The translations under genes and the position numbers were made by a program. Below the pieces are notes generated by a model. It worked only from the letters and a program-made list of their open reading frames with translations, was not told the DNA's origin and made no database searches. From Mobula hypostoma (taxonomy: Eukaryota): a stretch of 64,000 nucleotides of DNA. Within the stretch, counting starts at the first letter, position 1; each line of letters starts with the position of its first letter. The DNA is taken from positions 48,362,001 through 48,426,000 of the forward strand of contig NC_086097.1 of assembly GCF_963921235.1 (NCBI RefSeq), read 5' to 3'. Positions 5,845 through 50,711 of the stretch are shown piece by piece.

Positions 5845-6945
5845 TGACTCTAACGCACCAGCCTGTCCTGGCTGACACACCGGACAATCACTTGTATGTG
5901 CCGGCGACCGTGCGCTGTGACTCATTCCAGTGGGCCCACTCCTCATTCCTCTCCAGCTATCCAGGAGCACGATGGACTCTGTTTCCTGCGGTGCCGGTTC
6001 TGGCGGCCCGCCATGATTGCAGATATACAATGGTTTGTCCGCCTACTCTCAGTGTGCCTGGTCCAATTCCTCTGAACAGCGGCCCTCGTGTCCCCTGCAG
6101 CCCCGACTAATCCCTTGACGCCAGTGGTCCCACATCACCATGGGTTTCATCATGGATTTACCATGGTGATTATGATGGTGGTGGACCAGCTCTCCAAGAA
6201 GGCCCACTTCATTGCCTTCCCCAGGGGAGCCAGTGAGATAGTGGATCTGATTCTCCCTCATGTAATTTGCCTCCAAGGCTACCCTCTGGGCCACAATTCA
6301 GCTCCCACTTCTAGGAAGCCTTCTGCTCCCTCCTCCATACGGCAACAAGTTTGTCCTGTGGCTATCATCCACATACCAGGCAGAAAGAGCCAATCAGCAA
6401 GTGGAGAAGTTTCTGCAATGCTTCACTCTCTCTGACCCTTCCACACAGAAAAAGTATCTGCTTTGGGCAAGCTGTCCCACAATCTACACATCTCCTCTGC
6501 CATGGGCATGTCGCCCTTTGAAGTGCTTCATGGCTACCAACCCCCATTGTTCCCCAAGGTGGAGCCATGGTGGAGGTCCTGTCCGCCTGGGCCTGGTTCA
6601 CTGCTGCTGAAAGCTTGCAGGAGGGCATGGTGGGCCATCCTTGCTACCAATCATGTCTAATGGCGCCAGGCCAACCATTATCGGCACCCAGCCAGACTAC
6701 TCTAACCTGGGAAACATATCTGGCTGTGCCCCTGAGATCTGCCCCTGTGCACCCTGCAGTCCTGTGAGCTCTCGACCCAGTTCATTGGTCCTTTCAAGAT
6801 CACCCGTCACATCAATCCAGTCCCCTGCAGTCTCCAGCTGCCACCATCTCTCAGGATCACACCTACCTTCCCCAGGTCCTGCCTCCACCAGACCCATCCC
6901 GATTATCCTAGGCCTTTGGGGGCCAGCGGTAGGGGAGGGAAGTCC
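5845..6945 (+). mobile_element. Gypsy LTR retrotransposon, decayed integrase region
   Basis: MVVDQLSKKAHFIA, LHISSAMGMSPFEVLHGYQPPLFP and a KFIGPFKI-like (GPY/F) motif across frameshifts; polypurine tract at about 6929-6942. Confidence 0.8.
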
Positions 6946-7248
6946 TATCAGGCCTCCTCCTGTTTCACCTCCCAGTCTCCACCCAGCTAATAGGATTCAC
7001 CTGCTGCTCATTCCAAACTCATCACCTGCAGCTTATTTAACCCCAGTCCTCGATCACTCATCAAAGTATTCAAGCCTCAACCAGTTGCTCTTAGGTTTCA
7101 CTCTTCTCACCTAAAGTTTACCTTGTTGCCTGTTGTGTTTAGTTTCTGTTCTGTCTTGTTTTGTGGTCTATTATTAAAGTTATTATTAACTGTTGAGCTG
7201 CCTCTGCTACTCTTCTTTTGGGTCAGGCCTCCCTTACATTTCCTGACA
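6946..7248 (+). mobile_element. 3' LTR of the Gypsy element
   Basis: Follows the polypurine tract; starts T(A)TCA, contains TATTTAA and ATTAAA, ends TGACA. Confidence 0.7.
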
Positions 7249-7831
7249 GGTCCCTCTGTCATTAATCACATTGGATTTTATTTTTATCTGAGCCTGTGAT
7301 TGCTCTGGTTTGTTATAAACTCTATAATGGTGGAGACAGTGTAAACAGTGAATTTTACCAGGGATTCTTCTGTTCATCTGATGTCATTTTAGTTGAAAAG
7401 CCACACTCCCCCAGAATATTGCTGTAGTGTTAAGCACCAGTCTCCCAGCTTTCCCACAGCTCTTCTGCTAAAATTAGAGCAGATGAACAGAAGAGCCTCT
7501 GAAGAGATTCAGTCTTCTTAGTATATATATTTTCTATATCTCTATTGGATTTTTAAATCAAGTCATTGTTGGATGCTGTCATTCCCAGTTTATTGCTCTT
7601 CATTTTTTAAATATACTTCATATAGAAATTAATCAATATGAGGCACAATAATTCAGGCAGGATATGCACTTCTTCAATACTTTGCAGTGCTTTATTCCTT
7701 CAGCATTACAACCAATGATAGCAGTTGATGTCCAGCTACCACAGCAATCATCTATCATTGCCTCTGGGCTCTGATCTCTGAGCCTCATCTTTCAGAGGAA
7801 AACCACAGATTTTATATTCCCACTCAAATTT

Positions 7832-8267
7832 ACTTGGATTCATTTACTTTGCCTCCAACTTCCACCCTGCCCTCAAATTTACTCGGTCCATTTTTGACAC
7901 CCCCACCCCCTTTTTTTGTCTCTCTGTTTCCAACCCTGGAGACAGTCTATCTACTGATATCTTTTATAATCACACTGATTCTCACAGCTACCTGGACTAT
8001 ACCTGCATCTCTTCCATTTCTCACACATCTGCCCTCACCCAAACTCCACCAGCCACACCAGAGATAGAGTTCATTTTGTCCTCACCTACCACCGTACTAG
8101 CATCTGCGTTTAGCACATAATTCTCTGTAACTTTCACCATCTTCAATGGGATCCCACCACCAAGCACATCTTCCCCACCCCTGCAGGGATCACTCCCTAT
8201 TCGACTCTCTCGTCCGCTTGACCCTCCCCACCGATCACCCTTCTGCAAGGATGTAACTCTGAGGTTT
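7832..8267 (+). mobile_element. Penelope-like element (family 1) fragment, RT C-terminus/linker
   Basis: Homologous to the minus-strand PLE ORF at 26575-27717 (NFHPALKFT, DSHSYLDY, LVLTYH). Confidence 0.85.
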
Positions 8268-8850
8268 TATAAGACACTAGTCAGGCTGCACTTGAAGTAT
8301 TGTCAACAGTTTTGGGCCCCGTATCTCAGAAAGGATGTGTTGTCATTGGAGAGAGTCTAGAGGAGGTTCATGAAGATGATTTTGGGAATGAAGGGGTTAA
8401 CATATGAGGAGTGTTTGGCAGCATTTGGCCTGTACTCTCTGGTGTTTAGAAGACTGCAGTGGGGAATCTCATTGAAACCTACTGAACATTGAAAGGATTG
8501 GATAGGGTGGATGTGGAGAAGGTATTTCCTGTGGTTGGGTATATTTAGAACTGAAGGGCACAGCCTCAAAATTGAAATGCAGTCTTTTAGAATGGAGGTA
8601 AAGGAGGAGTTTTTTAGCCAGAGAATAGCAAATCTGTGGAATGCTCTGCCACAGACTGTGGTGGAGGCCAAGTCCACGGGTATATTTAAAGCAGAAGTTG
8701 ATTCTTTCCTGATTGGTCGGGGCATCAAAGGATATGGTGAGAAGGAAGGTGTAAGGGGTTGAGTCGGATATGGAAACAGCCATGACGGAATGGTGGAGCA
8801 GACCTGAGGGTCTGAATGGCCTAATTCTGCTCCTATACCTTATGGTCTTA
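8268..8850 (+). mobile_element. CR1 LINE 3' fragment inserted in the PLE
   Basis: YKTLVRLHLKYCQQFWAP...FFSQRIANLWNALP and a CR1 3'UTR. Confidence 0.9.
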
Positions 8851-9475
8851 TATCGTGAGACCCATTGTAGATTGGGAGACCGCTTCGCCGAGCACCTATG
8901 CTCTGTCAACCAGAAAAAGTGGGATCTCCCTGTAGTCACCCATTTTAATTCCACTTCCCATTCCAATTCCAATGTCAATCCTCCTCTACTGCCGTGATGA
9001 GGCTACACACAGTTTGGAGGAGCAATACCTTATATTCTGTCTGGAAAGCTTATAGAGTGAACATTGATTTCTCCAGCTTCCAGTAATTTCCACCCCACCC
9101 CCTTCACTGTTCCCCACTCCTGTTTCCCTCTCTCACCTTATCTCCTTACCTACCCATCGCCTCCCACTGGTGCTCCTCCTCCTTCCCCTTCTTCGATGAT
9201 CTTCTATCTTCTCTTATCAGATTCCCATCCTCCGGCCCTTTATCTTTCACAGATCAACTTCCCAGCCCTTTACTTCCCCCTCCCCCTCCCCCTCCCTGTT
9301 TCACCTATCATCAACCATTTTGTTCTTCATCCCCTTCCCCTACCTTCTTACGCAGACTTCTCCCCTTCCTTTTCAGTCCTTGGTGATGGGTCTTGGCCTG
9401 TAATGTCGACTTTTTATTCTTTTCCATAGATGCGGCCTGGCATGCTGAGTTCCTCCAGCATTTTGTGTGTGTTGC
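8851..9475 (+). mobile_element. PLE family 1 GIY-YIG C-terminus and 3' terminal repeat (decayed HHR at about 9375-9411)
   Basis: ETHCRLGDRFAEHL..DLPVVTHFNSTSHS followed by the pyrimidine-rich tail. Confidence 0.85.
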
Positions 9476-11199
9476 TTTATATTCCCACTGTTTATCATTC
9501 CTTCCTAATCTCATTGTTTTACAATCACATATGTTAAATGACATCTCCCATTTTCGTCCCAGTTCCCCAATATGCCTAGGTTCTTTTTATGTTTGATCAG
9601 GTGATTGCATCCTAGTTGCGTATCATTTGTAAATTTTAAGATCTTGTTTCTGTTCCTGCTTTCACATAAACTGCACTGTTCCAAAACTATTTCCTGTGGC
9701 ATCCAACTAGTTACCACATTCAATGTCAATGAAGTTCTATTTTTAAGTTCGATTTAATTCTTCTACCACTATTATTTTTTCATTTATTTCAGAAGCAACA
9801 CAGACTTGTGTTGAGATCAATTTCCTCTTTTGAGTATTTATGAATATCAAGCATTATCACTAAAATGCTTTTGCCGTGAAATTCACCCCCCAGTTAGTAT
9901 AACTTAACATTATGTTATTGTGCCAGTGTATTATACTAATTGTCGGTGTTCCGTAATTAGAAGAATTCTGGAGCTAGAGTGCATTCTGACCAGATTTGAT
10001 GGTGTGATTCAGAATTTCTGGGCCGTTATTTTCATTGGCCTTTAAGTCTCAGTACTTCGATGTCACTGCACAGATCTGCAAAACAAAAGTAGCATTTGTT
10101 TTTTTAACCAGGATCTCAGAGAATATACATTTAATCACACCTATTAAAGGAAACACTCTGTGCAAAGCAAAGAGATAGGCAATATACTGTATAGGGACAG
10201 CAAACAAAATAGGATTGGTACTATCAATATTTAGCTCGGTAATACATTCCTGAAGCAGCCACATTCAATTGGAACAACCATTGGTCATAAAAATCCAATT
10301 AAAGCTCAAGGTCAGAAATACTCTCCACCTAGAGGTTCTTCTGGGAAGCTATTTGCATTTGTAATGAAGAAGCCTATAGGTGAAATGAAATTATAACATG
10401 GAAAATCTGATTCCGTTTGCATTAGAGAGAAGCAGTATCATGCAATTGAACATCCCAATATGCAAGGGCTGCCATATGCTGTTGAGTAAGAGAGCTTTTC
10501 AATAAGGGAGAGAATAGCCAGGGGCAATTGACATGACATCAAATAAGCAAATAATGAATATCTTTTGATGGGTTGCACAAGAATTCATTAAAATAGAAAT
10601 ATAAAACAATGTGTCTGAAACTATTTCCTACAACAAATCTCATATATGATTTTTGTATTTTCTCTTGTCATTTGTCATGTTATTAAATTCTAAAAGTCAT
10701 GCTCATCTGTTTTCATTGGACCATGTTTTTAATAATGGTGAATGAAGAAATATTACCTGACATGTCCTTACACTGTAGGCAATCAAGCAACTAAAGATAA
10801 TAAAAATAATAAAACTAATAACACAAAAGCAATTAAAGTGATCTTTAAACAAAAATATCAGTGCATTTGGGTAGGACTTGAATCATCGGAATTATTAGAA
10901 TTTACATCATTTCACCACTGATTTTCTCTTCTCCTTAAGATGTGGTTTAAGACATGCTTCTATGAGTGAGTACTTGCTAGCCTAACATAATACATTTTAT
11001 AAATTTCATGTCAATTTTCATTTGTTAATGTTCATGTGAATCACTTTGACACATTTTACAACATTACTAGGATTAGATATACACAATTTATTACTGAATC
11101 ATTGACAGCTTTTTATATTTCAGGTGTGTGAAAGTAAGGGACATATTCTCTTAGTTTCCCTGGGTTGCCTGTTATTTGTAGATAATGGAAAATGGGTAG

Positions 11200-12812
11200 A
11201 TTGGAGTACTTACATGCACTGTGATGAAGTGCTTTGAGAGGTTGGTGATGAAACATTTCCATTCCTCCTTGAGGAGTGACTTGGATGTGCTCCAATTTGC
11301 CTATTGTCACAACAGGTTGACAGTAGATGCCATTTCATTGGCTCTTCACTCAAACCCGCCACATCTAGACAGTGAAGAGGTGTACACCAGGATGCTCTTT
11401 ATTGACTGCAGCTCTGTATTCAACATCATTGTCTTCTCAAAACTAATCAATAAGTTGAAAAACCTATGCCCTAATGCCTCCTTGTGCAACTAGATCTTCA
11501 ATTTCCTCACATGCAGACCTCAGTCAGCTTGGATTGGTAACAGCGTCTCCTTCACAATCTCAGTCAGCTCAGGAGCACCACAAGGCTGTGTGCATAGCTC
11601 CCTGTTCTGCTCACTTTAACTTATGACTGTAAGGCTAAGCACAGCTCTAATGCCATATTTAGAATTTCTGTTGTTGGCTGAATCAATGGTGGTGACAAAT
11701 CAACATATATGAGGGAGTTGAAAATCTGGCAGAACGGCGCCACGACAACCTGTCACTCAATGTCATCAAAACTGAAGAACTGATTATTATCTTCTGGGGT
11801 AGGAAACTGGAGGCCCATGAGCCAGTCCTCATTCGAGGGATCCTCAGCGTTATCATTTGAGAGGACCTGTCCTGGGTGCCATTACAAAGAAGGCATGGCA
11901 TCGCCTGTACTTTCAGAATCAGGTTATTATCACCGGCACGTATCTTTAAATTTGTTAAACTCTTACAAGTTCGTGAAGATTTGACATGTCATCTAAAATT
12001 TTGACAAACTTCTATTGTTGCACAGCTGATAGTATACTGACTGGTTGCATCACAGCCTGGTATGGAAATATTAATGCCTTTGAACAGAAAAGCCAACAAA
12101 AAGTAATGGATACAGACTGGTCTATCACGGGTAAAGTCCACCCTATTGTTGAGCACATTTATAAGGGGTGCAATCGCAGTAAAGCATCAAGGACCCCCAC
12201 TATCCGGTCTCTTTTCACTGCTGCCATCAGGAAGAATACACAGGAGCCTCAGGTCCTGAACCACCAGATTCAATACAGTTATTACCCCTCAACCACCAGG
12301 CTCTTGAACCAGAGGGGATAACTTCACTCAACTTCACTCACCCAACACTGAACTCATTTCACAACCCATATTCTCAATTCCAAGGACTCAAGAAACACAA
12401 TCTCATGTTCTCAATATTTATTGCTTTGATTTGTTTTTTCTCTCTCCTTCAAAAGAGGGGAGCCATGGAGTCATAAGTAGCTAGCCATCTGGACACAAGC
12501 TGGGGTCTGATCAGCCCCGGCTGGGTCACCTGGAGGAGGTTGTATGATGTTGAAAGACCCAAAACACCCGATGATTCCAGGAACATCACTGAAGATGCGT
12601 CCAGAAGCATCAATAGATGTATGTACACAGTATTTGCACAGTTTGTTGCCTCTTGCAAGTTGGTTGTTTGTTTTTGTTGTGAACCATTTTAGTTGATTCT
12701 ATTGTGTTTCCTTGTACTTATGGCAAATTACTGCAAAAAAGTTAATCTCAGAGTTGTACATAGAGACATATATACAGTTTGAAAATAACATTACTTTGAA
12801 CTTTGAACTTTG
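11200..12812 (+). mobile_element. Rex/Babar LINE, RT to 3' tail (decayed)
   Basis: MKCFERLV..LQFAY..DAISLALH..RMLFID, GAPQGCV, SILTGCITAWYG; tail (TTTGAAC)n. Confidence 0.9.
12450..12625 (+). mobile_element. Hero-like (R2 group) non-LTR element, extreme 3' end
   Basis: KRGEPWSHK* followed by GCTGGGGTCTGATCAGCCCCGGCTGGGTC..ATCACTGAAGATGCGTCC, resembling fish Hero termini as I recall them. Confidence 0.55.
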
Positions 12813-21701: not shown

Positions 21702-21990
21702 AGGGTGACACAGTAGTGTAGTGGGTAGCACAATGCTTTGCAGTTCAGGTGACCCGGGTTCAATTCCCACTGCTGACTGTATGGAATCTGTACATTCTCC
21801 ACTGGACCAAGTGGGTTTCATCTGGCTACTCTGGTTTCCTCCCACAGTCCAAAGATGTACTGGTTGGTAGATTAATTGCTAATTGTAAATAGTTCTGTGA
21901 TGAGACTAGAGTTAAATCTAGGGGATTGCTGTGCTCTGTGGCTCGAAGGGTTGTAAGGGCCTACTTCAAACTCTTCAAACAAATAAAAAC
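21702..21990 (+). mobile_element. tRNA-derived V-SINE (HE1-like)
   Basis: A-box-like head, GGTTCAATTCC B box, V-domain CTCTGGTTTCCTCCCACAGTCCAAAGA. Confidence 0.85.
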
Positions 21991-26574: not shown

Positions 26575-28290
26575 TTAACGGAAGTTGGAGAAGTCAATGT
26601 TCATGCCATCAGGTTGGAGGTTACCCAGACGGAATATAAGGTGTTGTTCCTCCAACCTGAGTGTGGCTTCATCTTTACAGTAGAGGAGGCCGTGGACAGA
26701 CATATCAGAATGGGAATGGGATGTGGAATTAAAATGTGTGGCCACTGGGAGATCCTGCTTTCTCTGGCAGACAGAGCATACGTATTCAGCGAAACGGACT
26801 CCCAGTCTGCGTCCTATCTCGCCAATATATAGAAGGCCGCATCGGGAGCACCGGACGCAGTATATCACCCCAATCGACTCACAGGTGAAGTGTCGCCTCA
26901 CCTGAAAGGACTGTCTGGGGCCCTGAATGGTGGTGAGGGAGGAAGTGTAAGGGCATGTATAGCACATGTTCCGCTTACAAGGGTAAGTGCCAGGAGGGAG
27001 ATCGGTGGGAAGGGATGGGGGGTACGAATGGACAAGTGAGTCGCGTAGGGAGCGATCCCTGCAGAAAGCAGAGAGAAGGGTGGAGGGAAAGATGTGCTTA
27101 GTGGTGGGATCCTGTTGGAGGTGGCGGAAGTTACGGAGAATTATATATTGGACCCGGAGGCTAGTGGGGTGGTAAGTGAGGACAAGGGGAACCCTATTCC
27201 TAGTGGGGTTGCGGGAGGATGGGGTGAGAGCAGATGTACGTGAAATGGGGGAGATGCGTTTGAGAGCAGAGTTGATGGTGGAGGAAGGGAAGCCCCTTTC
27301 TTTAAAAAAGGAGGACATCTCCTTCGTCCTGGAATGAAGAGCCTCATCCTGAGAGCAGATGCGGCAGAGACGGAGGAATTGCGAGAAGGTGGTGGCATTT
27401 TTGCAAGAGACAGGGTGAGAAGAGGAGTAGTCCAGGTAGCAGTGAGAGTCAGTAGGCTTATAGTAGACATCAGTGGATAATCTGTCCCCAGAGACAGAGA
27501 CAGAAAGATCTAGAAAGGGGAGGGAGGTGTCGGAAATGGACCAGGTAAACTTGAGGGCAGGGTGAAAGTTGGAGGCAAAGTTAATAAAGTCAACAAGCTC
27601 AGCATGCGTGCAGGAAGCAGCGCCAACGCAGTCATCGATACAGCGAAGGAAAAGTGGGGGACAGATACCAGAATAGGCTTGGAACATGGATTGTTCCACA
27701 AAGCCAACAAAATGCACGTATAGCTGGGACCCATACGGGTGCCCATGGCTACACCTTTAGTTTGGAGGAAGTGGGAGGAGCCGAAGGAGAAATTATTAAG
27801 AGTAAGGACTAATTCCGCTAGACGGAGCAGAGTGGTGGTAGAGGGGAACTGGTTAGGTCTGGAATCCAAAAAGAAGCAGAGAGCTTTGAGACCTTCCTGG
27901 TGGGGGATGGAAGTATATAGGGACTGAACATCCATAGTCATAGTCATAGTCATAGTCATACTTTATTAATCCCGGGGGAAATTGGTTTTTGTTACAGTTG
28001 CTCCATAAATAATAAATAGTAATAGAACCATAAATAGTTAAATAGTAATATGTAAATTATGCCAGTAAATTATGAAGTAAGTCCAGGACCAGCCTATTGG
28101 CTCAAGATCCATGGTGAAAATAAAGTGGTGGGAGCCAGGGGACTTAAAATCATCGAAAATTTCAGAGCGTGAGAAGTGTCACGAACATAGGTGGGTAGGG
28201 ATTGAACAAGGAGGGATAAAACAGTGTCGAGGTATGCAGAAATGAGTTCGGTGGGGCAGGAGCAAGCTGAGACAATAGGTCTACCTGGAC
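26575..28290 (-). pseudogene. PLE RT/GIY-YIG ORF (frameshift at about 27717, insertion at 27936-28106)
   Basis: GRPIVSAC, MDVQSLYTSIPH, GVAMGTRMGPSY, RCIDD (canonical YIDD altered), CKRNMCYTC, VIYCVRCSRCGLLYIGE. Confidence 0.9.
27936..28106 (-). mobile_element. 171-bp LINE/SINE 3' end with (ATGACT)4 tail
   Basis: TSD ATCCAT at 27930-27935 and 28107-28112; AATAAA before the tail; interrupts the PLE RT. Confidence 0.9.
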
Positions 28291-30810: not shown

Positions 30811-31028
30811 AGAGACTTAGCATGACACTATTACAGCTGGGGGCATCAGAGTTTGGAGTTCAATACCGGCATTTTCTGTAAGGAGTTTGTACACTCTCCC
30901 CATGGAATGCTTGGGGTTTCTTGGGTGCTCCTGTTTCCTCCCACAGCCCAAAGATATACTGGTTAGTAGGTTTGTCCCGTGATAAAGCTAGGGTTAAATT
31001 GGGGATTGCTGGGTGGTGTGGCTCAAAG

Positions 31029-33010
31029 CCGGAGTGTGGCTATTTTGGAGTGTGTTTTGGAAGCAGTGGGTCGAGACGGTTGACTGGAAAATGGCGGAGA
31101 GAGAGAACATCAAGGAAAGAGCCAAGCTGTTGAAGGAAGTTTTTGGTGACAGTGGAAGTGAACTAGAGTTGGAGGTTGGCAGGAAAGAGGAACGGAATAG
31201 AAAGAGGAAGAAAAGAAAGCAGAGGTACGGGATATCAAACTCTGAGGAGTCAGCAGATGATCAAAACAGGACAGCAAAACAATGGAAAGAAGATGAGATT
31301 AAAGCAATTATAAAACTAAGTGAAGATGAGACGTCTTTTGCTGATTGGTACCCGATTCGTTTGACGAAGATGCTCAACAAAATTATAGGCGAGATTAAAG
31401 GAGCAAAGATTTTACAAAATGGATCGCTATTACTGATTTGTCGGGATAGTGCTCAGCAAGGCAAAGTGATAAGATTATGTAGAACAGATGGCAAAGAAAT
31501 ACAATGCTCAATACCTAACAATAGAAAGTGGACTAGAGGAGTTATTTCGGGGATACCAACAAAAGTTACTATGGATGAGATTGAACAGAATATAAAAGGA
31601 GCAAAGGTTATTGAGGCCAAACGTTGAAAGTTACAAGAAACGGAAAAAAATGTGATAGTTTATCGGTAATGATTAACTTTGAAGAAGAGAGATTACCGAC
31701 TAACATTTACTTAGGGTATATGTGTTATGCGGTTAGAATATATATACCACTGCCTTTAAGATGCTATAAATGTCAGAAATTCGGGCACATTGCGGCAGTC
31801 TACAGAGGAAAACAAAGATGTAGGAGATGCGCTAGAAAAGATAAATATAGGAAATGTGAAGTGGGAGCTAGGCTGAAATGCTGCAATTGTGGCGAGGAAC
31901 ACAGCGCAGCTTATCGAGGGTGCATTTATAGCAAGAAGGCGGCTGAGATACAATATGTAACAGTAACTCAAGGATCAGTTATGCAGAGGCAGTGAAAGAA
32001 TTTGATGAAAAAAAGACTGTCAAGCAAACAAATACAGGGAATAATAAACTGGTGCATTGTGAGAGCTGTAATATGAAAAATAAGGATACACTATTAATGA
32101 GTAGAAAGGATTTTGTGCTTTTTATGATGGATGCAATTAATTGTTCAGCGCAAACAAGCAAAAGAACTGAGAAAATTAAAATTATCGTCAAATCTGCAGA
32201 AAAGTATCTTGGTATTAAAGGGATTAGGTTGGAAGAAGTCAAGAAGTCAAAGAAATGCTGAATGGAGGATCCAACAGTTCACAGGCAGGGGAGATGAAAT
32301 CTTAATGGCAGTATATTTATTGCAAATGGTCAAGAATTTAAGAAGTGTTTCAGAACTTAAGAAAAATCCTCGGATTTTATGGTTGAAGCCCAGGGTAAAT
32401 GTGCAGAACTCCAACAACAAATAGAAGTACCCAACAAGAACAACGGTGAGTTGGAAAGAGATTGGAAAATGGAGATTATTACAAAGATACAAAAGGAAAA
32501 GGAACTTGTTGCAAAGTGAATTATCTACATTCAGATTATAAAATGAAAACATGGAAGCAAATGAAGAAGAACTCCGAGGTCTCAGTAAACAACTGCAGGC
32601 TACGATCCAAGAAAAAGAAAACCTGAAAAAGCAGATAGACTTGGAAAAGCAGCAATTTTAAAAGTATAACGTGTGATAATTACTATTCTTTAACAAGACA
32701 ATTTTAGTCTTACAAGTGGTGTAGATGAAATCAATGTAATTGAGGTAATGCAACTACATGAAAACATGTGACAAAATTAGGGAAGAATAGCAGTTTGCGG
32801 CATTATCTGATGAGCGCATTTAAACATTCACGAGGAATTGCAACTACAGAGTGATGCTAATAGGGAACTGCAGGCTGAACTAGATTGTCTAAAGTAAAGA
32901 ACTCCAGGACGTATTTGGTTGGAACACAAGAAGTCTAGCAGGTGGCGGTAATGCACTGAAAACTGGCTGCCAACCGCCATAAAACAAAAAAAGAGAAGAA
33001 GAAGAAGGAT
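31029..33010 (+). mobile_element. Non-autonomous I/Nimb-clade LINE derivative
   Basis: TSD TGGCTCAAAG at 31019-31028 and 33011-33020; zinc-knuckle ORF1; 3' stem TGGCGGT..ACCGCCA; (GAA)n tail. Confidence 0.85.
31091..32305 (+). pseudogene. Gag-like ORF1 with three CCHC knuckles (frameshifted)
   Basis: RGVISGIP, PLRCYKCQKFGHIAAV, CRRCA, CCNCGEEHSAAYRGC; TAATG stop/start overlap at 32303-32307. Confidence 0.85.
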
Positions 33011-33061
33011 TGGCTCAAAGGGCCAGAAGGGCTTTTGCCATGATGTATCACTAAGTAAGTA

Positions 33062-35214: not shown

Positions 35215-36975
35215 GAGCCAACTCCAACCTCACTCCTTCCAAATATCTACTCCCTCCGCACCAATCCTAACCTCACCATCAAACCTGCAGATAAGGGAGG
35301 TGCTGTAGTTGTCTGGCGGACTGACCTCTACGTTCCTGAGGCCCAGTGCCAACTCTCAGACATCTCCTCTTACTTACCCCTCAAACAGGACCCCACTAAG
35401 GAGCACCAGGCCATTGTTTCCACACCATCACCAACCTTATTGACTCTGGGGGTCTCCCATCCACCGCTACCAACCTCATAGTTCCCATACCCCACAACTC
35501 CCGATTGTACCTCCTACCCAAGATCCACAAACCCACTTGCCCAGGTAGACCCATTGTTTCAGCTTGTTCTTGCTCCACTGAACTCATATCTGCATACCTC
35601 AACCCTGTTTTATCCCCCCTAGTTCAGTCCCTTCCTGCCTACATCCATGACACTTCACACTCTCTGCTGCTTCCTGAACCCATGCTGAACTTGTTGATTT
35701 CATCCACTTTGCCGCCAACTTCCACCCAGCCCTCAAATTTTCCTGGTCTATTTCCAACACCTCCCTCCCCTTTCTCAATCTCATTGTCTCTATCTCTGGA
35801 GACAGCTTATCCTCCAATGTCTATTATAAACCCACAGACTCTCACAGTTACCTGGACTATACCTCGTCCCACCCTGTTACTTGTAAAAACTGCCATCCCC
35901 TTCTCTCAATTCCTCCATCTCCACCACATCTGCTCTCAGGACGAGGCTTTTCATTCTAGAATGAAAGAGATGTCCTCCTTTTTCAAAGAAAGGAGCTTCC
36001 CTTCCTCCAACATCAATGCTGCCCTCAACCGCATCGCTTCCATTTCACACACATCAGCTGTTATCCCATCCTCCTGCAACCCCACCAAGGATAGGGTTCC
36101 TCTTGACTTCACCTATCACCCCACCAGCCTCTGTATCCAGCACATAATTCTCTGGAATTTCCACCACCTCAACGGGATCCCACCACCAAGCACATCTTTC
36201 CCTCGCCCCCACTTTCTGCTTTCCGCAGGGATCACTCCCTACACGACTCCCTTGTCCACTCATCCCTCCCCACTGATCTCCCTCCTGGCACTTACCCTTG
36301 CAAGCGGAACAAGTGCTACACCTGCCCCTACACCTCACTACCATTCATGGCCCTAAGCAGTCCTTCCAGGTGAGGTGACACTTCGCCTGTGAGTCTGTTG
36401 AGGTCATGTTCTGTGTTTGGTGCACCTGGTGTGGCCTCCTGTATATCAGTGAGACCCGACATAGATTGGGAGACTGCTTTGCCGAGCACCTACACTCCGT
36501 CCACCAGAAAATGTGGGATCTCAAAGCGGCCACATATTTTAATTCCACTTCCCTTCCCATCCATGGTCACCTCCACTGTTGTGATGAGGCCACACTCAGG
36601 TTGGAGGAGCAATACTTTATATTCCGTTTGGGTAGCCGCCAACCTGATGGCATGAACATCGATTTCTCAAACTTCCAGTAATGCCCCTCATTCATCTCCT
36701 TCACCATTTCCCATTCCCATTTCCCTCTCTCACCTTATCTCCTTGCCTGTCCATCGCAATCCTCTGATGCTCCTCCCCCTTTTTTGCCTTCCATGGCCTT
36801 CTGTCTCTTTCACTGATCAACTTCCTGGTTCATCCCTCCCCCTCCAGGTTTCACCTAGCATCTAGTGGTTCTCTCTTACCTCCCCTACCTTCCAAATCTA
36901 CTCCTCAGCATTTTTTCTCCAGTCCCGCCAAAGGGTTTTGGCCCAAAACATCAACTGTACTCGTTTCCATAGATG
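35215..36975 (+). mobile_element. PLE family 1 copy with internal RT deletion
   Basis: IKPADKGGAVVV, YLLPKIHK..GRPIVSAC, GLLYISET..PDGMNIDFSNFQ*; decayed HHR at about 36921-36957. Confidence 0.9.
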
Positions 36976-40512: not shown

Positions 40513-43500
40513 AAAAGGGCAGAAGTGGGAAGAGGAATAACAGACATTAAAAATCTACACACCAGTCAGATAAAACTTTTAAGGATGTACTTTCATCAAT
40601 GAAGACATGATTCAGCACTCCACGCGAGCATATGCAATTCTGACAGGAAGTATGCACCACTGAACTTAATTGAGAACTCAACTCAGAAAAATGAAGACAT
40701 TATCGCTATTGAAAAAAAGTTAACCAGTGGGAGAGCATGACCCTCCATGGAAGACATCCCCATGACCCGAGCAGAATAGATTTCAACAAGGAAATGCCAA
40801 ACACCTAGGCTCAGAGTTGGAGACCTCTTCCCAGAAACAGAAGGGTTCTTTGTGGCAATACAAGACCAGGTGGTTAACAAAAAAATTATCAAAAAGTCAA
40901 AATAAAAGACAACAAATTCAAGATGATAAATGTAGAAAATGCCGAGAGAAAACAGAAACAATCCAGCAAAGGGGATCCAGTAGCAGCTTAACTTTACCTG
41001 ATAGCTTACACAGGCACAATTAAGTTGCAAACATAGAACATAGAGTAGTACAGCACAGTACAGGCCCTTTGGCCCACAATGTTGTGCCGACTCTTAAACC
41101 CTGCCTCCCATATAACCCCCCACCTTAAATTCCTCCATATACCTGTCTAGTAGTCTCTTAAACTTCACTAGTGTATCTGCCTCCACCACTGACTCAGGCA
41201 GTGCATTCCACGCACCAACCACTCTCTGAGTAAAAAACCTTCCTCTAATATCCCCCTTGAACTTCCCACCCCTTACCTTAAAGCCATGTCCTCTTGTATT
41301 GAGCAGTGGTGCCCTGGGGAAGAGGCGCTGGCTATCCACTCTATCTATTCCTCTTATTATCTTGTATACCTCTATCATGTCTCCTCTCATCCTCCTTCTC
41401 TTCAGAGAGTAAAGCCCTAGCTCCCTTAATCTCTGATCATAATGCATACTCTCTAAACCAGGCAGCACCCTGGTAAATCTCCTCTGTACCCTTTCCAATG
41501 CTTCCACATCCTTCCTATAGTGAGGCGACCAGAACTGGACACAGTACTCCAAGTGTGGCCTAATCAAAGTTTTATAGAGCTGCATCATTACCTCGCGACT
41601 CTGAAACTCTATCCCTTGACTTATGAAAGCTAACACCCCATAAGCTTTCTTAACGACCCTATCTACCTGTGAGGCAACTTTCAGGGATCTGTGGTCATGT
41701 ACCCCCAGATCCCTCTGCTCCTCCACGCTACCAAGTATCCTGCCATTTACTTTGTACTCTGCCTTGGAATTTGTCCTTCCAAAGTGTACCACCTCACACT
41801 TCTCTGGGTGGAACTCCATCTGCCACTCCTCAGCCCAATTCTGCATCCTATCAATGTCTCTCTGCAATCTTAGACAATCCTCTACACTATCCACAACACC
41901 ACCAACCTTTGTGTCATCTGCAAACTTGCCAACCCAACCTTCTATTCCCACATTCAGGTCGTTAATAAAAATCATGAAAAGTAGAGGTCCCAGAACCGAT
42001 CCTTGTGGGACACCATTAGTCACAACCCTCCAATCTGAATGTACTCCCTCCACCATGACCCTCTGCCTTCTGCAGGCAAGCCAATTCTGAATCCACCTGG
42101 CCAAACTTCCCTGGATCCCATGCCTTCTGACTTTCTGAATAAGCCTGCCATGTGGAACTTTGTCAAATGCCTTACTAAAATCCATGTAGATCACATCCAC
42201 TGCACTACCCTCATCTATATGCTTGGTCACCTCCTCAAAGAACTCTATCAGGCTTGTTAGATACCATCTGCCCTTCACAAAGCCATGCTGACTGTCCCTG
42301 ATCAGACCGTGATTCTCTAAATGCCCATAGATCCTATCTCTAAGAATCTTTTCCCACAGCTTTCCCACCACAGATGTAAGGCTCACTGGTCTGTAATAAC
42401 TCGGAATATCCCTACTACTTTTTTTGAAAAAGGGACAACATTTGCCTCCCTCCAATCCTCTGGTACCATTTCCGTGGACAACGAGGACATAAAAATCCTA
42501 GCCAGAGGCTCAGCAATCTCTTTCCTTGCCTCGTGGAGCAGCCTGGGGAATGTTCCGTCAGGCCCCAGGGACTTGTCCATCCTAATGTATTTTAACAACT
42601 CCAACACCTCCTCTCCCTTAATATCAACATGCTCCAGAACATCAACCTCACTCATATTGGCCTCACTCATATTCAAGTTCCCTCTTATTGGTGAATACCG
42701 AAGAGAAGTATTCACTGTGGACCTCATTCACTTCCACAGCCTCCAGGCACATCTTCCCACCTTTATCTCTAATCAGTCCTACTTTCATTCCTGTCATCCT
42801 TTTGTTCTTCACATAACTCAAGAATACTTTGGGGTTTTCCTTTACCCTACTCGCCAAGGCCTTCTCATTCCCCCTTCTTGCTCTCCTCAGCCCCTTCTTA
42901 AGCTCCTTTCTTGCTACCCTATATTCCTCAATAGACCCATCTGATCCTTGCTTTCCAAACTTCATGTATGCTGCCTTCTTCCACCTGACTAGATTTTCCA
43001 CCTCACTTGTCACCCATGGTTCCTTCACCCTACCATTCATTATCTTCCTCACTGGGACAAATTTATCCCTAACGTCCTGCAAGAGATCCCTAAACATCGA
43101 CCACATGTTCATAGTACATTTCCCTGCAAAAACTTCATCCCAATTCACACCCACAAGTTCTAGCTTTATAGCCTCATAATTTGCCCTTCCCCAATTAAGA
43201 ATTTTCCTGCCCTCTCTGATTCTATCCTTTTCCATGATAATGCTAATGCAGCGGTGGTCACTGTCCCCCAGATGCTCACCCACTGAGAGATCTGTGACCT
43301 GACCCGGTTCGTTATCTAATACTAGATCTAGTATGGCATTCCCCCTGGTCAGCCTGTCAACATACTGTGATAGGAATCTGTCCTGGACACACTTAACAAA
43401 CTCTGCCCTGTCTAAACCATTGGAACTAATCAGGTGCCAATCAATATTAGGGAAGTTAAATTCACCCATGATAACAACCCTGTTATTTTTGCACCTTTCC

Positions 43501-44600
43501 AAAATCTGCCTCCCAATCTGCTCCTCGGTATCTCTGCTGATACCAAGGGGTCTACAGAATACCCCCAATAGAGTAACTGCTCCCTTCCTGTTCCTGACTT
43601 CCACCCATACTGACTCAAAAGAGGATCCTGCTTCATTACCCACCCTTTCTGTAGCTGTAATAGTATCCCTGACCAGTAATGCCACCCTCCTCCCCTCCCC
43701 CACCCCGCATCCCTTTTAAACCACAGAAATCCAGGAATATTGAGAATCCATTCCTGCCCTGGTGCCAGCCAAGTGTCTGTAATGGCCACTACATCATAAT
43801 TCCATGTATGTATCCAAGCTCTCAATTCATCACCTTTGTTCCTGATGCTTCTTGCATTGAAGTGCACGACCTTTAGCCCTTCTACCTTTACAACCTTTAT
43901 TCTGCTTCTCTTTCCTCAAAGCCTCTTTATATGTTTGATCTGGCTTTACTCCATGCACTATATTTGCAGTTCTCGCATGACCTTTATCCTCCTCCACCTC
44001 ACTATCGGCTCTAACACTCTGGTTCCCCTCCCTCTGCAAATCTAGTTTAAACCCCATTCATCATTCATTAAAATCTTGCTTTAAAATACAAAACTCATAA
44101 AAGAATCACACCTTACTATAAATACAAGCCTGATCCTGTTTTAGAGTCAGAACACCACAAATTATACTATGACCCATCATTTATTAGGGATAAGACAATC
44201 CATAAAACTGTCAGGATATAACATTACAGGATAAACAAGCAAGGACAACTTACTTAATAGATACAGTCATTCCAAACAGACATAACTTACAGAAATCAAT
44301 AAATGAAAAACGCCAGAAATATGCCGAATTAGAAGAGGAAATTGAAAGACTTTTCAAAACGTACAGGGTATGCATTGTCCCATTTGTAGTATCTACAACT
44401 GGAACCATCCCAAAGGCACTATACCATAGCATTAAACAAATAAGGTACACAGTAATGTTTATGTAAATCTTCAGAATGCCACAATACTAAACACCACTAA
44501 AATAGTCTGGAAGTTCCTAGCCATTGAGAAATGGGCATGCTTGGCTATGCCCATGTCTCAGGTGTTACCAGCTTGAGCTGAGAGAAAAAATGTAATACAA
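40513..44600 (+). mobile_element. R4/Dong copy 2 (3' third, split by CR1; parts 40513-41030 and 44057-44600)
   Basis: LFPETEGFFVAIQDQVV, CRKCREKTETIQ, HRHN.VAN, then YYKYKPDPVLE and the REL motif after the CR1. Confidence 0.8.
41030..44056 (-). mobile_element. CR1 LINE with near-complete frameshifted ORF2 (APE endonuclease and RT)
   Basis: FNARSIRNK, GEFNFPNIDW, GDSDH, YRPVSLTSVVGK, GVPQGSVLGPLLF, FADD; ORFs 43430-43867, 42663-43703, 42383-42727, 41094-42455. Confidence 0.95.
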
Positions 44601-49508: not shown

Positions 49509-49700
49509 GTCTCTTCGTGTCCTTGCCTCCGCTGGGTAGGTCTGACCATTTGCCGCTACCCTGAGTTGGGAACTGTCTCTTCGTGTCCTCATCTCTGCTG
49601 GGTAGGTCTAGCCGTTTGCCGCTACCCTGAGTTGGGAACTGTCTCTGCTAGGTAGGTCCGGCCATTTGCCGCTAATCAGAGTTGGGAATTCTGTCTCTTC
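49509..49700. repeat. Tandem repeat (units about 45-65 bp) inside the LTR
   Basis: Three copies of GGTAGGTC..(A)TTTGCCGCTA..GAGTTGGGAA.TGTCTCT. Confidence 0.8.
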
Positions 49701-49704
49701 CGAT

Positions 49705-50036
49705 GTTCCAAGTCCAGGCTCCAATGTTCTGAGTTCCAAGTTCAGGATCCGATGTTCCGAAGTCCAAGTCCGGGTCCCGAGTCCCGGTCCAAGTCCGGGT
49801 CCCGAGTCCAAGTCCAAGTCCGGGTCCCAAGTCCAAGTCCAAGTCCAAGTCCGGGTCCCGAGTCCCAGGCCAAGTCCAAGTCCAAGTCCGGGTCCCCGAG
49901 TCCAAGTCCAAGTCCAAGTCCAAGTCCAAGTCCAAGTCCGGGTCCCGAGTCCCAGGCCAAGTCCAAGTCCAAGTCCGGGTCCCGAGTCCCAGGCCAAGTC
50001 CAAGTCCGGGTCCTGAGTCCCAGGCCAAGCCCAGGC
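49705..50036. repeat. Compound minisatellite (GTCCAA/GTCCGG/GTCCCGA/GTCCCAG)n
   Basis: Directly visible. Confidence 0.95.
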
Positions 50037-50711
50037 TCTGCAACCCAATCTAGGTCCATGGTGCAAGTCCAACTCCAGCCATGCATATTCCCGCTTCTGC
50101 TTCATTCACTCCTTGATGTCTCTTTGTACAATCCTTGCTTCCTTGCTTTCCTAGTAACTATTAATAAACTCTGTTTTTGTTAACGCTATAAAACGTGTTT
50201 GTGTCCTGCATTTGGGTCCATCCATGCTCCACACTTGTGACACATTGTAATCGTGTTCCATACCACCAACTCAACTTGCAAGTTAAACTTCAGAGGATCC
50301 TGTACAAGGACTCCTAAATCCTTTTGCACTTCTGGTTTTGAATTTTCTCCCTGCTTAGAAAGTAGTCTATGCCTTTATTCCTTCTACCAAAGTGCATGAC
50401 TGTCCACTTTCCTACACAGTATTTTATCTGCCACTTCTTTGCCCATTCTCCCAATCTATCCAAGTCCTTCTGCAGATTCCCTATTTCCTCAATACTTCAT
50501 CTATCCGCTGCCCCTCCAACTATCTTTGTATCATCTACAATCTTAGCCACAAAGCCATCATTCTGTTAGCCAAATCTTTGACATAAGGTGACATAATGTT
50601 CCTGCATATTATTTGGAGGTTTCTTCACAACAGGGTTTATTCCTTTTGCTGTATCCAAGAAGTAGGCAGCTTGCAGATCTGGAAGCTCCTATAGCTTCTG
50701 CAGTCCTTTGC

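Follow-up and report, generated by a model that had tools for sequence, protein, structure and literature searches.

A probable ORF1-only derivative of an I-group LINE carrying a fragment of the golgin gene GCC2 in the ray Mobula hypostoma

Organisation of the insert

The window analysed here is a 64-kb stretch of Mobula hypostoma DNA (64,000 nucleotides, forward strand). Positions 31029-33010 are occupied by an insert of 1,982 bp, the whole of which is enclosed by one target site duplication (TSD; Table 1). The perfect 10-bp duplication described in the first-pass annotation was recovered as an exact 10-mer on either side of the insert. An exact 10-mer is expected by chance with a probability of 8e-7 per position pair, or about 0.002 over 50x50 positions. 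The repeat that received the insert is multi-copy and SINE-like, and alignment showed that SINE copies elsewhere in the window, at about 21780 and 36980, match it on either side of the insertion point, which lies approximately 40 bp upstream of the SINE end. The location inside a SINE given in the first-pass annotation therefore stood. The more specific name given there, V-SINE, is kept as a putative label.

Table 1. Positions of the insert, its parts and the surrounding repeat (window coordinates)
Feature	Position	Strand	Basis or remark
Host SINE, 5′ part	30830..31028	+	72-77% identity to the window copies at 21777 and 36983; very high contig depth
Left TSD, 10 bp	31019..31028	+	Exact, non-extendable; the 10-mer occurs just twice within the window
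5′ UTR, 62 nt, apparently complete	31029..31090	+	Resembles the region 5′ of L008 ORF1
ORF1, about 404 codons, three CCHC-type knuckles	31091..32305	+	3 frameshifts, no internal stop
TAATG, overlap of ORF1 stop and ORF2 start	32303..32307	+	Sequence, frames
Endonuclease stub, first ~43 ORF2 codons	32305..32391 (86 nt)	+	DNA alignment to L008
GCC2 (GCC185 golgin) coding fragment, residues ~612-822, sense	32391..32891	+	E 3.1e-11 database-wide
LINE-derived 3′ end	32895..33010	+	81% identity over 79 nt to the L008 3′ end; alignment of 11 ends
Right TSD, 10 bp	33011..33020	+	Exact copy of the left 10-mer
Host SINE, leftover 3′ tail	33021..33060	+	Alignable with SINE copy tails at ~37120 and ~21945

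The first part of the insert had been described as a 5′ UTR followed by a CCHC ORF1, and both were found. ORF1 is full length by comparison with relatives of about 400 amino acids, and aligned with P0035 and P0036 in three or four colinear blocks. Its frameshifts lie near 31623, 31973-31984 and 32233; these positions are approximate, the protein blocks changing frame at about 31624, 31974 and 32240. At E<=0.001, the middle of ORF1 has 7,425 relatives, of which the best is 68% identical. Nucleotide identity was 66% over 902 nt to the ORF1 of L008, a fish-like metagenome contig that carries a near-complete LINE. When the N-terminal part of ORF1 was searched among longer proteins, none of the 887 candidates was an intact longer relative. 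L008 ORF1 has three zinc knuckles, and all three have homologues in the window copy, where two are damaged: the first has a C>Y change, the second is without its H, and the third alone is intact. The zf-CCHC match in ORF1 was weak (E 0.0046, below the Pfam cutoff), and a Pfam search of eight frames gave nothing above the cutoff. Of the 23 differences listed for ORF1 in this copy, 18 are non-synonymous, which is consistent with its neutral decay.

One relative in the P0036 cluster, P0185 (XP_038549038.1) from Micropterus salmoides, is a LINE ORF1 relative named 'SERTA domain-containing protein 3 isoform X2'. The name may reflect either a mis-annotation or an exonised element.

The LINE in L008 lies at 6465-11640 on the minus strand. 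It is near-intact, with one frameshift between endonuclease and reverse transcriptase (RT), and contains ORF1, an endonuclease, RT, RNase H and a 3′ end like that of the window element. No TSD was found for it. Three features of the I group were present between the two elements: a CCHC ORF1; APE, RT and RNase H together (in L008); and a TSD combined with a simple-repeat tail. The homology to L008, including its RNase H, indicates that the ancestor of the window element was an RNase H-bearing I-group LINE. Searches for an autonomous partner element in rays found none.

The 3′ stem-loop and (GAA)n tail of the earlier description were also located. The hairpin lies at 32942-32980 and is followed by the GAA-repeat tail; the nucleotides at 32895-32920 are only putatively LINE-derived. 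Folded alone, the hairpin is weak (z -1.88, with 9 of 200 shuffles equally good), and the 121-nt 3′ end folded no better than shuffled sequences (z -1.02). The hairpin motif is common to 10 contigs, one of which carries a full RNase H-bearing LINE, and is kept in 10 of 10 metagenome loci, these loci having been chosen by that very motif. We take this motif to be typical of fish Nimb elements. The RT of L008 fell into generic RT clusters of the ESM Atlas, with no named clade. The 10-bp TSD lies inside the range of 10-15 bp given for zebrafish Nimb-2_DR in the accessible part of PMC4245944, a range that is not clade-specific. The element is accordingly best called Nimb-like, the label being based on TSD length and the 3′ motif.

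ORF2 is represented by a short stub. The TAATG overlap and the endonuclease remnant behind it were both as originally described, and the absence of RT was borne out by the lack of any RT-length frame inside the insert. Alignment of the stub with L008 DNA revealed deletions of 25 nt, removing the WNARS motif, and 2 nt, and protein comparison revealed a third of 15 nt, corresponding to the five CIQET codons. Both conserved endonuclease motifs, WNARS and CIQET, are thus missing from the stub.

Identity and origin of the cargo

The sequence between the stub and the 3′ end had been read as a captured coiled-coil fragment of host or foreign origin, and the peptides quoted in support of this were all found in it. 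Its source is host GCC2, which encodes a protein with GRIP and Rab-binding domains. A single frame of the cargo, translated with X at stops, gave two matches among 108 candidates, and both were ray GCC2 (E 3.1e-11 and 7.8e-10). In a frameshift-aware alignment, 32391-32891 was colinear with GCC2 residues ~612-822, apart from an internal deletion of 41-43 codons, so that about 500 bp remain of approximately 630. This alignment contained 4-5 frameshifts and 4 stops; the total of 8 lesions used below is a conservative count from the alignment, counts by eye ranging from 9 to 13. The cargo scored 447 against this segment of GCC2, compared with 54-81 against eight other GCC2 segments, and shuffled cargo scored 62+/-8 (maximum 74 in 20 shuffles). 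Since the score is far above those of other coiled-coil segments and of shuffles, it indicates homology and not shared composition. Of the earlier 'coiled-coil cargo', the origin in a coiled-coil gene was upheld; a working protein was not, as the reading frame of the cargo is disrupted, partly by lesions common to the family.

Two other sources for the filler were considered. Diverged ORF2 was rejected, as a blastn comparison of the insert with L008 matched ORF1 and the 3′ end only, with no match to L008 ORF2. Another transposable element or a generic coiled coil was rejected by the GCC2 alignment score relative to the other segments and the shuffles.

To place the capture in time, we compared the cargo with 15 cartilaginous-fish GCC2 orthologues, of which 13 came from the 15 cartilaginous-fish search hits and two from a protein cluster, two sharks being left out. 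Identity was 72-75% to four myliobatiform proteins (stingray, devil ray), falling to 64% for Pristis, 52-56% for Narcine and the skates, and 48-54% for the sharks. At 24 diagnostic sites, a set that includes two misaligned columns at the deletion edge, the cargo had the myliobatiform-derived state at 17 and a Pristis-like state at 3. It carried none of three Mobula-derived states and one of three stingray-derived states. In a tree the cargo grouped with Myliobatiformes with a support of 100, and fell outside the crown pair with a support of 68. The diagnostic sites and the tree assign the capture to the myliobatiform stem; it is likely, from these comparisons, to postdate the separation from Pristis and to precede or roughly coincide with the split of stingrays and devil rays.

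Ray ORF1 showed 48-68% protein identity to its relatives, one cluster of which includes a largemouth bass protein, whereas the GCC2 region showed only ~30% even to turtles. The parent LINE could have passed horizontally between bony fish and rays.

Representation of the element in sequencing runs

Four of 24 listed sequencing runs were aligned to the window at 80% likeness, three of them DNA-like (X1, X5 and X9) and the fourth, X17, possibly RNA, although the run search listed no RNA data; runs D-H, with shares of 0.14-0.20, were left out. We used summed contig depth, which is not a copy number and gives an order of magnitude only. In X1, X5 and X9 respectively, the summed depth of unique flank was 9, 49 and 7.4, the median depth of ORF1 was 9,565, 42,465 and 3,311, and that of the cargo was 10,361, 34,556 and 2,365. 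The ratio of cargo to ORF1 was therefore 1.08, 0.81 and 0.71, and cargo depth exceeded that of the flank bin by factors of 1,151, 704 and 319. In all three DNA runs the depth was unbroken through both cargo junction bins. This 300-1,150-fold contrast, together with the continuity, shows that the cargo belongs to a repeat. The flank differed from the window by 0, 2 and 24 positions in about 250 bases across the three organisms, so the family is common to three related genomes. The element is a multi-copy family, likely with hundreds or about a thousand copies as an order of magnitude. That ORF1 is about as deep as the cargo implies few close autonomous copies, and the flat depth suggests that the family outnumbers any close autonomous parent.

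The depth of the cargo could alternatively come from a separate GCC2-derived repeat, in which case the LINE/GCC2 chimera would be a one-off at this locus. No second copy of the element was found within the 64-kb window, and none of the 32 listed of 71,376 pieces bridged the 5′ stub/cargo junction or spanned the whole element. However, two of the listed pieces (X1 record 7 and X9 record 30), which are diverged with 16 other letters each, bridge the junction of cargo and 3′ end. The stub differences at 32345 and 32362, which belong to the deleted stub, were moreover borne by 7-22 contigs per DNA run, the depth is continuous over both junctions in three runs, and a single TSD surrounds all parts. 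We regard a one-off chimera as extremely improbable. The original proposal that the element retrotransposed together with its cargo is instead favoured, the depth of the cargo being close to that of ORF1 in the three DNA runs and the 3′ junction being shared.

Some contigs had other structures. One X1 contig (depth 75) skips 32266-32306 and has 5 other letters in place of the end of ORF1, its stop and the beginning of ORF2, and a loose end at 32293 in X9 represents a different ORF1/ORF2 junction. There are, then, subfamilies that differ in their junctions. Joints that skip 23-24 nt at 32457-32490, near the edge of the internal deletion, were seen in X5 and X17, and positions 32764-32766 were variable among contigs; the cargo thus also differs among subfamilies.

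The same contigs were used to ask which lesions of the window copy are shared by the family, the differences listed being 40 of 404 substitutions and 12 of 28 indels. The ORF1 frameshift at 31623 is undone in 13, 8, 6 and 3 contigs of the four runs (30-85% of depth), and that at 32233 in 5, 9, 5 and 2 contigs (10-84% of depth). Contigs undoing the frameshift at 31973 made up 38% of the depth in X1, 1% in X5 and 4% in X9. Host-type alleles at 32624 and 32818, in the cargo, had a depth of 0 in X1, X5 and X9. They were found only in one 2,920-nt X17 record, which matches the cargo alone and extends beyond it, and which is likely to be host GCC2; its three-base gap at 32563 coincides with a residue missing from both Mobula GCC2 proteins. 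Lesion density in the window copy also differed, with 3 lesions in the 1,215 nt of ORF1 and 8 in the 501 nt of cargo (P 0.004). The frameshift-free ORF1 contigs and the family-wide cargo lesions indicate that ORF1 was probably kept open in the source lineage, and that the cargo is likely to have decayed as a non-coding passenger.

A different fate for the cargo would be translation, through TAATG, of a fusion protein in which the ORF2 start continued in frame into the GCC2 coiled coil and which was selected, at least early, as a scaffold or oligomerisation aid. The three stub deletions total 42 nt, so that the ATG is still in frame with WLKP, and a single extra base at the stub/cargo junction would give an in-frame WLKP-QGKC fusion. 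Over 32509-32657 the frame set by the ATG coincides with that of GCC2, and no more than two stops precede 32658 in it. These features would suit a fusion, but the base insertion at the junction is absent from the 12 listed indels, and the host frame of the cargo is spread over all three frames. It is likewise unfavourable that none of the three DNA runs contains the host-type alleles at 32624 and 32818, and the amino acid identity of 72-75% is close to a neutral expectation at about 11% DNA difference (an estimate from 27 of 254 letters of the likely host contig). We therefore consider a selected fusion protein highly doubtful, and a decaying passenger the better description of the cargo.

We also compared the evolution of host GCC2 in the captured region with that of the flanking coiled coil. 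The ratio of protein change was 0.65-1.5 in four myliobatiform pairs (P>=0.18) and 0.74-1.55 in seven control pairs. Faster evolution of the captured region in myliobatiforms than in controls was not found in this comparison, which has low power; within that power there is no sign of an escape like that of aub in flies.

Possible routes of capture and related elements

The first-pass annotation had proposed a non-autonomous ORF1-only element, and this agrees with the retention of ORF1 and both LINE ends, the loss of ORF2 and the cargo in its place. We consider it probable that the insert is a full-length but decayed member of a multi-copy family derived from an I-group LINE, in which ORF2 was replaced by the GCC2 fragment, and which was mobilised in trans. 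In the route we envisage, reverse transcription of the element RNA in a stem myliobatiform ray would have jumped from the 3′ end to GCC2 mRNA, and a second switch from GCC2 would have returned it to the element about 43 codons into ORF2, with a loss of ~3.7 kb. The resulting 2-kb chimera, still equipped with the 5′ end, ORF1 and the hairpin for 3′ recognition, could then be transcribed, supply its own ORF1p and borrow ORF2p in trans. In the source lineage, selection may have preserved an open ORF1, with the stub and the cargo carried along as decaying non-coding passengers, and the chimera may have multiplied to hundreds of copies or about a thousand. The window copy would have inserted into the SINE with a 10-bp TSD and undergone neutral decay.

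Capture at the RNA level is one inferred step of this scheme. With the same family and the same mobilisation, the GCC2 piece could have entered at the DNA level, by repair of a break or deletion from the GCC2 locus or a retrocopy. Our literature search found no paper on the GCC2 exon structure, and the fragment may, as we assume from the human gene, fall within one large exon. The internal deletion of the cargo and the three stub deletions are in keeping with erosion of DNA. Both parents have a Q at the 5′ junction (WLKPQ in L008, EQGK in GCC2), which fits a short shared sequence and favours neither RNA nor DNA. Against entry at the DNA level, a sense coding cargo between the 5′ and 3′ parts of an element is the layout produced by template switching in LTR elements (PMC5131818, partial text). 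We regard DNA-level entry as unlikely, and capture by template switching on RNA as the preferred route.

The layout of the window element has precedents. Bipartite ORF1-bearing non-autonomous LINEs include HAL1 (from L1), HeT-A (Jockey) and Ag-Sponge (CR1), and like these the window element would combine a LINE 5′ end, ORF1 and 3′ end with the absence of RT and mobilisation in trans (PMC5786205, passage available). Unlike it, the elements in that list include no I or Nimb member, the passage mentions no host cargo, and the word 'Nimb' occurs 0 times in the paper. The first-pass term 'HAL1-like' applies to the layout and not to descent from L1, as the relative has a CCHC ORF1 and RNase H and belongs to the I group. 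Membership in HAL1 itself was rejected on the same grounds, an L1-clade origin being at odds with the CCHC ORF1 and with the RNase H of the relative. Nimb elements share with the window element and its relative an ancestral ORF1/ORF2 layout and a TSD of 10-15 bp, L008 having APE, RT and RNase H; in contrast to them the window element is non-autonomous, and the Nimb host ranges quoted in the accessible parts of these papers omit cartilaginous fishes (PMC4245944, PMC4758252, PMC9004415).

The closest parallel for the cargo is found in telomeric Jockey elements of Drosophila, for which the available part of PMC13534243 gives the following picture. About 40% of families are ORF1-only and rely on other families, and 20 families carry host coding fragments of 140-235 bp, from at least 9 captures. 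Eight of nine captures involve piRNA genes, and capturing families reach higher copy number. The window element resembles these HeT-A and TART relatives in being an ORF2-less non-LTR family with a host coding fragment (PMC13534243, partial text). They are, however, Jockey elements at insect telomeres, whereas the window element is of the I group, dispersed with a TSD and in a vertebrate. Its fragment, with ~500 bp left of ~630, occupies the former place of ORF2, in contrast to the 140-235-bp fragments described in the same partial text. GCC2 is a Golgi tether, unlike the piRNA genes captured in TART-nxf2 and the piwi/aub type there, and our literature search found no link between GCC185 and piRNA.

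Other chimeric elements are less similar. LTR-mediated retroposition yields chimeras in which internal ORFs are swapped for a partial mRNA copy and which are mobile as a non-autonomous unit; according to the text available, most of these are single young insertions, unlike the non-LTR, high-copy element described here (PMC5131818). SVA_F1, with part of MAST2, is likewise a vertebrate non-autonomous non-LTR subfamily bearing part of a host gene, but SVA is non-coding, acquired a 5′ exon via splicing and is mobilised by L1 (PMC4859970, partial text). We found no report in the literature of a GCC2-carrying element or an ORF1-only Nimb family, although a Repbase or Dfam entry is possible. The main text of the manta and devil ray genome preprint mentions neither Nimb nor GCC2 (0 times each), and the lone 'Nimb' match in the catshark paper is a DOI string. 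Gene capture by ORF1-only LINEs is thus already known, and the vertebrate I-group case with GCC2, as we read it, adds to a known kind.

The window element would represent a dispersed, non-telomeric LINE derivative of a vertebrate in which ORF1 was kept, ORF2 lost and a host coding fragment multiplied by hundreds. It could provide a natural test of points left open in the accessible text of PMC13534243, namely whether the loss of ORF2, or a host cargo, raises the fitness of a retroelement, here without an explanation by piRNA genes. A broader scenario is that unrelated retroelements of myliobatiform rays repeatedly traded their enzymes for host coiled-coil segments that aided their spread, with, in this case, an original in-frame ORF2-start/GCC2 coiled-coil product, or a cargo-borne RNA signal, enabling a parasite of a LINE to outcompete its autonomous parent; we think this decidedly unlikely. 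In practical terms, with GCC2-like fragments present by the hundred at ~90% identity, mapping reads to the real GCC2 and repeat-masking it would be error-prone.

Elsewhere in the window, long frames were seen at 41097-43915 and 26578-27962 (both on the minus strand) and at 35400-36353. We take these to be CR1-like (endonuclease, RT) and Penelope-like (RT, GIY-YIG-like) elements. A low-complexity tandem region at 49520-50180 reads as PSPSPS and QVQVQV in translation.
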